A DNA stretch of 64,000 bases from Escherichia coli (GTDB lineage: Bacteria; Pseudomonadota; Gammaproteobacteria; Enterobacterales; Enterobacteriaceae). Made by a program: the position numbers. Of this stretch, positions 1 to 9,000 are shown piece by piece. Location of the stretch: NCBI RefSeq assembly GCF_003018255.1, contig NZ_CP027441.1; one strand, written 5' to 3'. How positions within the stretch are numbered: the stretch's first letter is position 1; each line of letters opens with the position of its first letter.

Positions 1-3000
1 ATACTTTGGTCAAGAGCCGCCACCTGGTCTGCTGTCAGTGCCACACCAAACTTCAGACCGAGCGCCTTCTGTGCACGGGCAGCGTTATCCATCAGGTAGC
101 GCATCTGGTCGGTGTCTGAACCAACCCCGTTGATATAGCGCCCCCCGATCTGGTTCAGCATATAGTTCGATACATAGCGGGTATCAAAAGCGGCATCCCC
201 CAGGAAGCGATAATCTTTTTCCGGTTTCAGCCCGAGCCGGTCAAGAAAATACGATGAGCCCGGGAATTGTTTTTCATCAGTATACGCCGGGTCTGTTTCA
301 CGTGGTGCCTGCCCGGGGTGCATCCTGAGCAGGTCATACAGTCCGGCAAACAGACTGCTGTCCACCTTTCCGAGACCATCCAGTTTCGGATTCACCGTAA
401 TCAGATATGGACTGTCAGGGTCTGCTGACGGGACAAAATAACCATTGTTACCGGAAGGCAGGGGATAGTTCCCCTCCACGATGCCGGAAGCCAGGTCCGT
501 ACCACTGCCGATCGTCAGACGGGTAATGGTGTCAGTCCAGTCCGGGGCTGTGACGGTCAGCATCTCTGTGCCATCCGGCGCCAGTTGAGCCATTCCCGGG
601 CTGATATTTTTCTCTGCCGGCGTGTTAATTTCAGGTGCCGCAAGGGTATTTGTGATCCGTCCTGCATTTGAGGTGGTGGATGTATTACTGATATCACTGG
701 AAAAAACGGCAGTGACATTTTTGCCTGCCTGAATCACGGCTCTCAGAGCCTGACCGGTGTCTCTGGTGACATATTCCGGAGCTCCGGAGAGAGTAAAGGT
801 AACGCGATCATCGGCAGAAGCATCTCCATACTGCAGATGCCCGTCGTTGGGGATCATGGCCAGTTTGCCGTAATAGCGATACACATTGTATTCATCCTGT
901 GTATAGCCAAAGAAGGACTGATTATTCAGTTGTGAACCCGACAGGCTGACAAACCCGCTGGCAAGAAGATGACTTCCCGTATTATCCAGTTTGTCCGCGT
1001 CAATCAGCAGATTATTCCCGGCCGAAATTCTGGCATCCCCCCCTGTTGCACCAACATCGACGCGTGTTGTGCCAGTCAGAAATTTCCGGGTGGCTCCCTT
1101 TTCAGTCGGAACGGCCCATGCGTCAAAACCACCACCGGCAGTACCGCTCCAGGACTTCACATAATATCCCCATCCATCTTCACCTAAATCGCCCACTCTG
1201 ACTGAAACAGAATTTGCACCATCAGGTACTGCGACATTCTCAACCGGAATGTATGATTTTGTCTCATTTATGCCCTCCCGCTGATTCAGTAAATGTCCGG
1301 TTCTGATGGTGATATCACCGCGGGTGGTTTCGATATTCCCGGAGGTATTAATCACTTCAGCATTCGCGGCACCACTGACATCTTTCTGCATCACCAGGCT
1401 GTCACCCGCCAGCATATCGCCGTGATGGTTCCGGATGGTGCTGGCAAACAGCGAGAGGTTATTGCCCGCATACAACAGTGCGGTGTTAATGACTGCCCCG
1501 GCGGCCGTTAACATCAGACTACCCGTCGTGCCGGTAAAAGCGTCGAGAGTGATATCTCCCCTGCTGGTCAGGCTGACGTCCCCGCCTGCCTGCAGGCTGC
1601 CGCTGGCATTCATCGCAATCCCGCTGCCGCTCAGTGCCGTGGTGCCGTTGCCGGCGGTCAGCTGGCCATTGTTGGTCAGTCTGCCTGCAGCATTCAGCGT
1701 GATACCGTTGCCCTGCAATGTGGCGCCATTGGTAATATCCCCCTGGCTGCTGACGGAGAGTTGTTTATTTGCGGCGATAACGCCCTGTGCGGTCAAACCA
1801 CGGGTGAGCTTCAGCGTCAGGTTACCGAGTGCAACCAGCTGGCCCGCGCCGCTGAGCGAAACCATTTCAGCAAGCATATCACCGCCGCTGAACACCTTCC
1901 CGCCGGCGTTGTTCAGGTTGTTCCCTTTTATTGTCAGGCCCTGATTACCCAGCAGCGTGCCGCTGTTGGTGATGGTCTGCGTGTTGACGTTCAGTTGTGC
2001 GGCCTGGAACAGACCACGGTTGGTCAGACTGTTACCTGTGAGCGTTGCCTGATTCGCCGCCATCACAGTGCCATTACCGGCAAGCTTCGCCACGTTCAGC
2101 AGCAGGTCAGTGGCCTGTAGCCAGCCACTGCCACTGTAGTCCGGCGTGGTGAACGTCAGCTCACCGCCGGAAAGAATCTTGCCACTGTTGTGGGCCTGCG
2201 TTGCCGCGCTGAGCGTGGTTTTACCGTTGCCCTGAATGGTGCCGTCATTGGTCAGCACGGGTGCGGAAAGCGCTGATACGTTCTGGCTGAGAAGCACACC
2301 GCTGGTCTGGTTGGTCAGGGCATTCAGCAATGTAAGAGTCAGCCCGCTCTCGCCCTGCACACGACCTGAGTTGGCCAGCGAACTGGCGGTGATTCGGTTA
2401 TCCGCCCCCTGAAGCTGCCCACTATTGCTGATGTCTCTGGCGTTGACGTTTAATGCACCGCCCGTCAGCATTTTACCGTGCTGTTGCAGATTACCACTGA
2501 GTGTCACGTTCAGGCTGTTAACCCCACTGATTTCGCCACTGTTGCTGAGCGAATCGCCATTCACTTCCAGCGTCTTCGCGCTGATTAATCCCTGGTTACC
2601 CAGCACTTTGCCGCTCAGACGGGCATCGCCCAGGGCGGTAATTTTGCTGCCGGTGGCGGCAATAACATCGCCACTCAGGGTCAGAGCCAAATCCAGCGCA
2701 CTCTGAACAGCACCGCTGCTGGTCAGGCTGCTGGCATCCAGAGTGATGTTCTGCCCCTGAATCCGGCCGCTGTTGGTCACATCTCCTGCGCTCAGCACCA
2801 GCGAGTTCTGGCTCAGCAGCGCGCCACTGTTGGTAAGCCCGTCCGCGCTGTGCAGGGTCAGACCGCTCAGACCTGTGACCGTACCGCTGTTGTCAGTGCT
2901 TCTGTGGTGAAGCGTGACATGGTTACCCTGGACAGTGCCGCTGTTATCCAGTGAGTTTCCATCAAGGGAGAGCGTGCCGGCCGAAAGCAGACTGCCCCGG

Positions 3001-6000: not shown

Positions 6001-9000
6001 AACTTGTGTGTGTGATTCAGCCCGACAGAAAATGAAGTGAGTTTACGGCTGCTGCCCTGAAGCAGAACATCATCCAGATAATTGTGAATAATGCGGTGCT
6101 GCAGACCTCCGGTCAGTGCTGTCTTCATGTCCCCGTTACGGAACAGGACATGCGACAGTCCCAGCCGGTGAGTCTGCAGGTCTCCCGTGGAACGCCACCG
6201 CCAGCCCCGGTTATCAATGGTGCTGAGGTAGTCACTCCATGAATACGTGTAATCCACCAGGGTATAGCCATACGGCAGACTGACACCGGCGGCAAAATTC
6301 CTCGCATCATGTGACACCGAAAAGTCACTGCTCCGTCCCCCGCTGACAAACCAGTTGTCAGCCAGCCCCAGCGGATTATTAAAGGAAAGGACACCATTTA
6401 ACTGCCCCGTACCGGTATTCTTCTGTCCGCTGTTGTCGATGCCCACGCTCCCTGTGACAGGCCATTCCGGCGATGCCGTCAGTGTCACCACCGACCATCC
6501 CTCACGGTCACCGGGCGATATTTCAATCTGTACCGGCTCCGTACGCAGACGGTTAATCTGCTCCATCCCCTGCTCAATATCCCGCAGGTTCAGAACCTTC
6601 CCCTCCATTCCCGGGAAAACCATCTTCAGGGTGCGGCCAGGAAGGTCAGCGCCTTCCGCCCGGATTTGCTGCAGCCTGCCTTCTATGACCGTTATGTGCA
6701 GTACGCCCCCTGAAAGGTCCTGCTCTGTCAGAAAGGCCCGGCTGGTGATATATCCCCGGCGTATATAGCCGTCCGTCACGGCATCCGTGACCGCGGTCAG
6801 CCCCGTGATATTCAGACACTGATTCACCCACGGTGCCACCAGTCTGTCGGTTTCTGCAGACGTCAGTCGGGTGGCCCCACTGACAACAATGCGTGACACC
6901 GTAAAGCAGGGACCTTCAGTACCGGCAGACATTTCCGGAGACGGTATGACAGTCAGCGGCGCACTGCGCTCCAGCGCATCACGCTGACGCTGGTTTTCAT
7001 CCAGCAACTGCTGCTGTTGCTGCTGAATGGCACTGCGGTCACCCGGAGACAGCATGGCAGCCGGAGACGAAAACGAAAGAATGCAAAGGCAGGAGAGGAG
7101 GGGAAAATAGCGTGCCACCGGAGAGAAAGTGCGGAGCTTAAATGCGCACTGGCCGGAAACCATACCAGGCAACAACGTTCTGTTCGCCAGTAAGTTATCC
7201 TGCCGGTGCTGCATATTCTCCTCGTGGGGTATCCAGTGTAAATTAACGTAAGTGGAATGTCAGTGCTGAAATTTACACCCGATAAAAAACATACTGAAAC
7301 AATCCTGTTATGTAAAGTCCGGGAAAAATGTCAGAAATGTGATTAGCGTTGTGGTTTACAGAGGGGAAGGGAAAACAGACATTCTTGCCTGACGTGCTCA
7401 GCGCCCCCCTGGAGAGGTTCACATAAAAGCTGTCCTGCAATTTGCGGGTAACCACTTCTGTCATCAAGCCGCTGGCACGAATGCTGTGGTGCGGCTGAGA
7501 GCCGCAGAGGGGAAACTACGTCCATGTTGAGGGAAACGGAGCAAAAAAGCCCCACTCATACCCTGTATCAATCAGTGTCATCCGGTTTAACAGTCATTTC
7601 CGTTCATATGGTGCACAAGGAGTTTTGAAGAAACATCCGTTTTGTGGTGTTTTTTTAATCTTTTGGGAATTTTAATTCCTGTCGTTCAGGCAGAAGAAAC
7701 AGATGAATGCTCTCTGTGACAGCCATATTGTCACGGGGCTTAATACCGTTTGTTAAAAAACGTACTTTGCGTACGGTTGGGCTTCAGACCCCGTAAACGC
7801 CAGGCAGCAGCCGTGGTTAAGATAATGTTCAACGGCAACCGCCTCCCAAATTCTGGTCTGGCAGGTAATAGGTGTTGGCTCCGCGCTTGCCGTTGGTGGT
7901 TGTTCTGGTTACGGTGATTTGCCCTGCCTGTTCCAGTATCTGAATTGCCCGCTTAACACTCTGTCGACTAATACCGGAGAGGCTTACCAGTTCAGTGATT
8001 GAGATTTGATTTTGTCCGGCAGCAATGACGCTGGCGATTACACACAGGATTGAATTTGTCGTTTTCAATGTCAGCGCCCCTTATCCTGCCAGGCCATGTT
8101 TTTTCTTGCAGCTGTCTGGATGTCGTCCGAAGGTCATCGAATTATAGTTCAAAGAAAAAAGATATCGAGCAATGCGAGTTCTTTTTCTCCTTATGCCGCG
8201 CCAGCGGCATGGAAGGCGGCACGCTGTGGTTACATGTGATACAGGAGTAAAACCGCCGAAGCCCGGCGTAAGCCGGTACTGATTGACAGATTTCACCTTA
8301 CCCATCCTCAGCCCTGCCAGACCATACCCGCTTTCAGCCATGAGAGAGCTTCTGTGCGCGGTCGGAGTGGTCCCGACGAGGGTTTACCCGAAGTCGGGGC
8401 GTATCTCCGCGTTAGCGGGCCTTCAGGGCCGCTTACGAGCGTGTACTGAGAACATCCAGCCAGAAGACTGACAGCGACGATGCCCTTAGTTACAACATTC
8501 ATAATTAAAAGCGACTCTGTTCCGGCCCTTTGGGCCGGGGCGGGGCCGCTTTTCAGTTATGAGGGAGGGGCACGGTGCTGCGTTTGTGTGGTGTTTTTTA
8601 TTCCTGGTGTTTTCGCGGTGGTTTCAGAACGGTGATGTACGGGGCCCGCGCGTTAGCGTGGGAGGTGCTTTTAGATTCTGAGCGGCGCGGCCTTGGCCGC
8701 TGCAAGCGAAGGCCTTTTTGTGTTTGTTCACAGTGGGTTCAGAGATAAAGACTTTCCCTGCGGCGAAGCAACGTAGGGGATTAAATAATGGGGTTAAGAT
8801 TATATTGCAGGTTTGCTGTTTCACGTTTGCAGCTTTTTAAAGTTCTTTATTTGCGGATTTATGTGGATAACTGAAACAACGTGGCCATGTTCTGATGACT
8901 GATACGTGGTTTTATGGGCAGATATGCCCCTCTGAGGGAATTTAAGGTGATTACTGCAGATTTTGGGCTGAGCGGAACCAGCGCCGAAAGCCCCGGAGGG

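Follow-up and report, generated by a model that had tools for sequence, protein, structure and literature searches.

A cdiBA locus of predicted receptor class III beside the replicon of a Shiga-toxin Escherichia coli virulence plasmid

In this study, we sought to determine which CDI system, if any, is encoded by a cdiBA-type two-partner secretion locus whose exoprotein gene runs off the end of the available sequence, and whether its receptor and toxin can be named from the part that is visible. The locus occupies one end of the window, the 64,000-nucleotide stretch of E. coli contig NZ_CP027441.1 that we analysed and to which all coordinates refer (Table 1). The answer we favour, and hold with high confidence, is a known, catalogued class III cdiBA locus carried by a virulence plasmid of Shiga-toxin E. 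coli, with a C-terminal half expected, from its relatives, to be of DUF4258 type. The locus itself is already known: RefSeq names the protein CdiA, and it was classified by accession in a 2017 paper.

Table 1. Features of the cdiBA locus and its upstream region in the window
Feature	Position	Strand	Evidence
cdiA, codons 1-1811 of expected 3161 (57%), running off the window start	3..5435	-	open frame; identity to WP_052904243.1
Tyr/Pro-rich (YP) domain and segment toward FHA-2, residues 1658-1811	3..464	-	11-residue sequence beginning at residue 1657
Predicted class III receptor-binding region, residues about 1379-1657	465..1301	-	Table S3 positions (PMC5371414)
FHA-1 beta-helical repeat region, extracellular filament shaft, residues about 289-1378	1302..4571	-	several weak Fil_haemagg matches; TIGR01731
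TPS secretion domain, residues 40-288	4572..5318	-	Pfam TPS E 7e-50; TIGR01901 61.8 bits
cdiA signal peptide, ahead of the TPS domain	about 5340-5435	-	
cdiB-cdiA spacer, 12 nt	5436..5447	-	direct sequence reading
cdiB, Omp85/TpsB outer-membrane transporter, complete, 588 aa	5448..7214	-	ORF, Pfam, PDB match 6WIM
Non-coding region 5' of cdiB, presumed cdiBA promoter site	7215..7828	-	sigma-70-like consensus matches

The transporter gene and the visible part of cdiA

The gene that a preliminary description of this DNA had taken for a CdiB/TpsB transporter is well supported as such. Its product matches POTRA_2 (4.8e-23), POTRA_3 (5.6e-18) and ShlB (5e-91) in Pfam, and its residues 53-588 match an E. 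coli CdiB of known structure, 6WIM (E = 0, 1206.7 bits); a TpsB/Omp85 protein with POTRA domains and a ShlB-type barrel is therefore encoded directly adjoining the exoprotein gene. With the cdiB stop codon (TAA) at 5450-5448 and the cdiA start codon (ATG) at 5435-5433, both on the minus strand, the two genes are separated by 12 nt and not by the 13 nt first reported. A cdiC lysyl-acyltransferase gene between cdiB and cdiA is the mark of class IV systems and is lacking in class III; class IV was ruled out, as the spacer is too short to hold cdiC. On the other side of cdiB, five sigma-70-like matches occur in window 7100-9100 against 1.7 expected from shuffles, four of the five inside the non-coding region, all on the minus strand, and the cdiBA promoter presumably lies there, as judged from these consensus-level matches. 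The placement of the locus next to a replicon was also correct: repA (9037-10068, minus strand) lies 1.8 kb upstream of cdiB and is accompanied by a PK-repZ pseudoknot from Rfam (10081-10230, minus strand, 156.5 bits).

The cdiA frame extends to window position 3 through 1811 codons without a stop, while the two remaining frames on that strand hold 107 and 94 stops, so a chance open reading frame is excluded. As had been claimed, this gene is open at position 1 and begins with a TPS domain that contains NPNL, located at residue 98 (5133-5144) and accompanied by NPYG at residue 139. Haemagglutinin-type repeats do follow the TPS domain, each match being weak (best Fil_haemagg E 0.00017; TIGR01731 20.7 bits against a cutoff of 18 bits), and the boundaries given for the FHA-1 region are analogous to those in Ruhe et al. 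2017 (PMC5371414). The order of domains around the YP domain follows PMC9086364. Pfam matches to FHA-2 (Fil_haemagg_2) begin only beyond the window, from about residue 1950. NCBIfam returned nothing on the full CdiA beyond generic TPS and repeat models, and no tandem repeats were found at the DNA level in window 1-12000.

On its face the window shows only a TpsB partner, a TPS domain and haemagglutinin repeats, which adhesins and haemolysins have too, and the best PDB sequence matches for the N-terminus are the TPS domains of FHA and HpmA (about 1e-34). The locus might on these grounds encode a two-partner-secreted adhesin, haemagglutinin or haemolysin (FHA, HpmA or ShlA type) that does not act as a toxin between bacteria. 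We give this next to no credence. The cdiB product scores 118.7 bits against FhaC compared with 1206.7 bits against E. coli CdiB, the receptor-binding region matches that of the experimentally characterised CdiA-STECO31, and the 1811 residues are identical to those of a CdiA already catalogued, in which PT-VENN and a toxin are present; it was on this last identity, to a protein having the VENN motif and a toxin, that the adhesin or haemolysin was rejected. The preliminary description had proposed that a gene without a pretoxin/toxin module and immunity gene would be an adhesin; this check does not refute a CDI system, since in six near-identical plasmids the gene runs on into PT-VENN and a C-terminal toxin, with a small immunity-type ORF after it.

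The receptor-binding region

The preliminary description overlooked that the window includes the receptor-binding region (about 465-1301), from whose sequence the class of the target receptor can be identified. In Table S3 of Ruhe et al. 2017 (mBio, PMC5371414), WP_052904243.1 is entered as class III with toxin type 8 (DUF4258) and the receptor-binding domain polymorphism R1614G. All 13 of the positions tabulated there match the WP_052904243.1 entry in the CdiA encoded here, and 12 are identical to CdiA-STECO31, the exception being position 1614, which is G (R1614G). A region of STECO31 type thus stands between FHA-1 and the YP domain, and classes I and II were ruled out on that ground. The receptor-binding regions of classes I to III share 24-27% identity (PMC5371414). 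When the region was compared with plasmids by tblastn, the distribution was bimodal, in that 41 records reached at least 95% identity, 38 fell short of 60% and none lay between. Tsx use has been demonstrated for CdiA-STECO31 (PMC5371414), and by its sequence the CdiA encoded here should belong to class III, with Tsx as its predicted receptor.

Two characterised systems help to place the locus. CdiBAI-STECO31 of E. coli STEC_O31 (CdiA WP_001385946.1; class III, Tsx-dependent) has the same architecture, and R1614G is the sole tabulated difference in the receptor region; it carries an EndoU tRNA-Glu anticodon nuclease and a PtsG-dependent entry domain, whereas the relatives of the locus described here carry a DUF4258 toxin and another entry domain. 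CdiBAI-EC93, the founding CDI system, is likewise plasmid-borne and shares the cdiB-cdiA order, the TPS/FHA-1 organisation and a very strong CdiB match, but as a class I, BamA-binding system with an ionophore toxin it differs in both receptor and toxin.

Plasmid relatives and the half of CdiA beyond the window

The closest catalogued counterpart is WP_052904243.1, from E. coli CFSAN026807/26808. As encoded in NZ_CP027372.1, in the same plasmid context, it is a 3161-aa protein whose N-terminus is identical to the 1811 residues in the window, R1614G included, so that the first 57% of the gene is visible here. NZ_CP027372.1 differs from the window by three mismatches in the first 21,400 bases, and elsewhere by a few SNPs and one indel; within cdiB there is a single, synonymous difference at position 5991. 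No record in the collection is identical to the window base for base, the best having a few mismatches. Across 21-25 kb the six nearest plasmids are near 100% matches to the window, and all have an uninterrupted 3161-codon cdiA and a DUF4258 module; in the 4601 bases past the window start, five are exact matches and the sixth scores slightly lower.

The preliminary description was right that the toxin tip and immunity gene lie beyond the window start. It went too far in treating the toxin type as simply unknown, since the near-identical plasmids allow it to be inferred with good, though not full, confidence. The last 1350 codons of cdiA, with the toxin, and also cdiI fall outside the window, and their features were read from the six nearest plasmids or from NZ_CP027372.1. 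In these relatives the PT-VENN pretoxin domain (Pfam 7.5e-20) has its VENN motif at residue 2931 in all six. DUF4258 (PF14076) is matched in the NZ_CP027372.1 CdiA at E 2.2e-5 over only 28 of 71 model positions, homologues are annotated PF14076, and the C-terminus includes REYSGHALDRMQDRG. A small ORF of 100 aa 3' of cdiA begins MVTSKKYIICEYAQ and shares 14 nt with the end of cdiA; an ORF of the same length, likewise with a 14-nt overlap, follows a Serratia DUF4258 CT and is 67% identical to it. Pfam, NCBIfam and PDB gave no match to this putative CdiI, and a sequence search of the CT and CdiI against solved structures gave no meaningful match.

In Table 2 of Halvorsen et al. 2024, type 8 is entered as a 'tRNase (?)' whose entry domain is #16 or #11, neither with an assigned receptor, and the LHH toxin type has entry domain #16. 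CTs with PF13930 or PF14411 toxins share the first ~130 residues of this CT. Because LHH (PF14411) CTs share this N-terminal domain and the LHH type is tabulated with #16, the comparison points to #16 as the entry domain of the DUF4258 CT. In a first AF2 model of the whole 227-residue CT, from an alignment that mixed CTs with different toxins, the entry domain was poor (pLDDT 30-60), and AF2 was rerun on the trimmed nuclease domain. Residues Y3099, H3102, D3105, R3106 and E3118 of the CT are invariant. The type 8 toxin, in a domain outside the window, falls within the BECR (barnase/EndoU/colicin E5-D/RelE) RNase fold, and the DUF4258 domain is probably a tRNase. Its identity to BECR-fold tRNase toxins (CdiA-CT of NC101, 5I4Q; Kp342, 6CP9; EC869, 7VMC) and to colicins D and E5 is 8-28%, and phmmer found no match among them for this domain outside the window.

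We infer the toxin type of this replicon, rather than see it, because related plasmids swap toxin precisely after VENN. Plasmids 99.4-99.9% identical over window 1-7400, NZ_CP075641.1, NZ_AP027255.1, NZ_CP073590.1 and NZ_CP009107.1 among them, carry another toxin, matching the reference as far as the base after the motif and diverging from there, and the class III CdiAs of Table S3 (PMC5371414) span five toxin types, including the type 10 pore-former on the 94-3024 plasmid. The same cdiBA locus could accordingly carry a different CdiA-CT/CdiI module here, for example an EC93/M605-type ionophore as on the 94-3024 pO104:H21 plasmid. Against this stands the DUF4258 module found in every one of the six nearest plasmids, with their near 100% match across 21-25 kb, and we consider a different module improbable.

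The cdiBA locus of some other plasmids is less well preserved. O113:H21 plasmids of the family have a 3285-bp deletion corresponding to window 4090-7374, with the loss of cdiB and the first ~449 cdiA codons. The resulting pO113-type cdiA pseudogene (e.g. NZ_CP031899.1) lies on the same backbone, in the same position between subAB and repA, is 99.9% identical over window 1-4089 and has a different CT; the archetype pO113, NC_007365.1, encodes this class III receptor-binding region too, with 99.3% identity at the protein level. An IS66 element lies within the cdiBA locus of NZ_CP027311.1, and the flanking region in the reference plasmid contains many IS elements and frameshifted orphan cdiA-CT fragments. 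The deletion, the IS66 insertion and the state of this flanking region would fit a decaying remnant, in which cdiA is broken or truncated beyond the window and no functional toxin is delivered. Yet here cdiB and all 1811 window codons of cdiA are intact, and in the six nearest plasmids the 3161-codon cdiA is uninterrupted; we judge decay to be very unlikely.

Proposed mechanism and significance

The literature on E. coli CdiA suggests how the catalogued class III locus may act. CdiA would be exported through the outer membrane by CdiB, whose Omp85-type barrel is joined to two POTRA domains. The half of CdiA encoded in the window (TPS, FHA-1 filament, receptor-binding region and YP domain) would be displayed outside the cell. 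The class III receptor-binding region would bind the nucleoside channel Tsx of neighbouring E. coli; binding would restart secretion, and the C-terminal half encoded beyond position 1 would then deliver the toxin. That half is expected to comprise FHA-2, PT-VENN, a cytoplasm-entry domain and a DUF4258 nuclease with a BECR (RelE/colicin-type) RNase fold, and the 100-aa CdiI would protect the producer.

Two more far-reaching proposals concern sequence outside the window: that the RNA target of the DUF4258 module and the membrane protein by which it enters are both new, or that cdiBA beside the replication origin polices plasmid loss by killing plasmid-free neighbours. We regard these as speculative and rather unlikely. 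Retention of mobile elements mediated by CDI has been proposed previously.

Altogether, the value of this locus is practical, and it carries little weight as a discovery. Unlike the O113:H21 plasmids of the family, from which cdiB and the 5' end of cdiA are gone, the plasmid lineage studied here retains an intact cdiBA. A class III CdiA with Tsx as its expected receptor would predict which neighbours the host of the plasmid can attack. The expected toxin module belongs to an E. coli CDI toxin type that awaits assignment of its activity and entry route, and studies of it could conveniently draw on this plasmid as a natural source.

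A class III cdiBA locus beside the replicon

The preliminary description had placed a CdiB/TpsB transporter gene, followed by a CdiA-type exoprotein gene open at position 1, next to the replicon, and this finding is both real and correctly interpreted. Domain searches of the CdiB product returned POTRA_2, POTRA_3 and ShlB, and against 6WIM, the solved structure of an E. coli CdiB, it scores E = 0 (1206.7 bits, versus 118.7 bits to FhaC). In CdiA, residues 40-288 form the TPS secretion domain (E 7e-50), which contains NPNL (residue 98) and NPYG (residue 139); C-terminal of this domain are many haemagglutinin-repeat matches, each weak alone. 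Since the other two same-strand frames contain 107 and 94 stops across its span, cdiA is a real gene. The order of cdiB then cdiA also holds; only the proposed 13-nt spacing needs correction, to 12 nt. The position beside the replicon is borne out by repA and PK-repZ (coordinates in the table). As the PK-repZ pseudoknot precedes repA, the replicon next to cdiB uses an IncI-complex-type antisense and pseudoknot control of initiator translation. Right beside the replicon is an RfaH/NusG-family paralogue (10770-11411, plus strand; 38.5 bits to RfaH models, below cutoff), and after it a flotillin and OB-fold (NfeD-like) gene pair (~12484-14825).

Features of the cdiBA locus and adjoining replicon, in window coordinates
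Feature	Position	Strand	Basis or description
cdiA	ATG at 5435, last full codon 3-5	-	1811 codons, 0 stops, open at window edge
CdiA receptor-binding region	~465-1301, inside window	-	by Ruhe et al. 2017
cdiB-cdiA spacer	12 nt, between cdiB TAA and cdiA ATG	-	sequence
cdiB	5448-7214	-	588-codon ORF, TAA stop
repA, replication gene	9037-10068	-	1.8 kb upstream of cdiB
PK-repZ regulatory pseudoknot, upstream of repA	10081-10230	-	Rfam, 156.5 bits

The collection contains no exact copy of the window, and six plasmids differ from it by only a handful of mismatches across 21-25 kb. The reference plasmid, NZ_CP027372.1 (strain 2015C-3905), is a pO113-family plasmid with subAB, epeA, an IncI-type transfer region and a type IVB pilus cluster; it shows three mismatches only over window 1-21,400, and the sole difference in cdiB is synonymous. 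The 1811 window residues of CdiA are identical to the N-terminus of its CdiA (WP_052904243.1, 3161 aa).

Ruhe et al. 2017 (mBio, Table S3) predict that protein to be a class III CdiA and assign it toxin type '8 - DUF4258', with one receptor-binding-region polymorphism, R1614G, relative to CdiA-STECO31, whose receptor was identified experimentally as the nucleoside channel Tsx (PMC5371414). Receptor specificity is set by a ~300-residue region between FHA-1 and FHA-2 (PMC5371414), which lies within the window; the preliminary description made no use of it. At the tabulated positions, the window translation has the STECO31 residue at 12 of 13, and G at 1614 as tabulated. When plasmids were searched with this region by tblastn, 41 records shared at least 95% identity with it, 38 shared less than 60%, and the interval in between was empty, a bimodal distribution that fits discrete receptor classes. 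Because the spacer is so short, there is no room for cdiC, the class IV marker gene. The locus is a class III CDI system that has been catalogued before and is already known.

Predicted sequence past position 1 and toxin exchange among relatives

All six nearest plasmids agree over the 4601 bases past the window start (five exactly, one with a slightly lower score), and these bases encode, in order, FHA-2 repeats, a PT-VENN domain (7.5e-20; VENN at residue 2931) and a 227-residue C-terminal toxin part (CT). In other Enterobacterales, the N-terminal ~130 residues of this CT are also found ahead of the unrelated toxins PF13930 and PF14411, as would be expected if they were a modular cytoplasm-entry domain. 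Type 8 DUF4258 toxins are given as 'tRNase (?)' with entry domain #16 or #11, the receptor being listed as unknown for both, and the LHH type is also assigned #16 (Halvorsen et al. 2024, Table 2, PMC11630599). Since this N-terminal domain also occurs in LHH (PF14411) CTs, the comparison points to #16. The nearest plasmids also have a 100-aa ORF that shares 14 nt with the end of cdiA; no Pfam or PDB relatives of it were found. As an orphan DUF4258 CT of Serratia marcescens is followed, with the same 14-nt overlap, by a 67% identical 100-aa ORF, this ORF is likely cdiI. Judged from these relatives, a DUF4258 toxin on the present replicon is probable but not proven.

Plasmids with 99.4-99.9% identity across window 1-7400 follow the reference no further than the base after VENN and differ from there on; toxin modules have therefore been swapped on this backbone. 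One such relative, the 94-3024 plasmid, has a CdiA with a pore-forming toxin in Table S3 (PMC5371414). The window holds the intact form of the locus. In contrast, O113:H21 pO113-type plasmids, NZ_CP031899.1 for example, have lost 3285 bp (window 4090-7374) comprising the whole of cdiB and the initial ~449 cdiA codons, and what remains of cdiA is annotated as a pseudogene. Another relative has an IS66 element within the locus. Outside the window, downstream of the putative cdiI, NZ_CP027372.1 carries at 2919-9660 a series of orphan cdiA-CT/cdiI remnants. Among these, two CT fragments are ionophore-like, frameshifted and accompanied by small membrane-protein ORFs, while another fragment contains VENN and precedes a CPCC cysteine-rich protein. 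Pieces of IS66, IS110 and Tn3 are mixed in, as is a colicin V immunity gene together with a remnant of cvaC; subAB is next.

Other features of the window

In the transfer region, a 1340-aa LPD7-domain protein (33192-37214, plus strand) is an intact ORF in the window and annotated as frameshifted in NZ_CP027372.1, owing to an indel near position 36752. Behind pilV, which encodes the shufflon tip adhesin, the reference annotation has no more than 159 nt left of an integrase gene (~26790-26948, plus strand); the shufflon recombinase appears lost and the PilV variant fixed. Just after excA is a 528-aa protein (52927-54513, plus strand) with an unusual fusion of a sigma-70 region-4-like segment (residues ~132-200) and a TnsA-like endonuclease N-terminal domain (residues ~332-440). 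A hok/sok post-segregational killing module follows (54650-54958, minus strand; Rfam sok 119.7 bits, Hok/Gef gene annotated in the reference). A 518-aa phosphoethanolamine transferase homologue (55472-57028, minus strand), in a 41% GC island and adjoined by ECs1377-family and DUF2569 genes, is far below the curated CptA, EptA and MCR cutoffs (best 110 bits versus a cutoff of 404). Near the window end, a low-GC (39-42%) block holds epeA (59321-63472, plus strand), a serine protease autotransporter gene and pO113 marker.

Implications for contact-dependent inhibition

By analogy with E. coli CdiA, as summarised in PMC9086364, CdiB would export CdiA, and the TPS, FHA-1 and receptor-binding parts would form an extracellular filament. 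Secretion would pause once the YP domain is reached, leaving FHA-2 and the toxin in the periplasm, until receptor binding restarts export and the CT passes into the target cell; the entry domain would then reach the cytoplasm via an inner-membrane protein, and sibling cells would be protected by CdiI. The predicted type 8 toxin and its entry domain would be encoded past the window, which itself encodes the transporter and the whole displayed, receptor-recognising half of CdiA.
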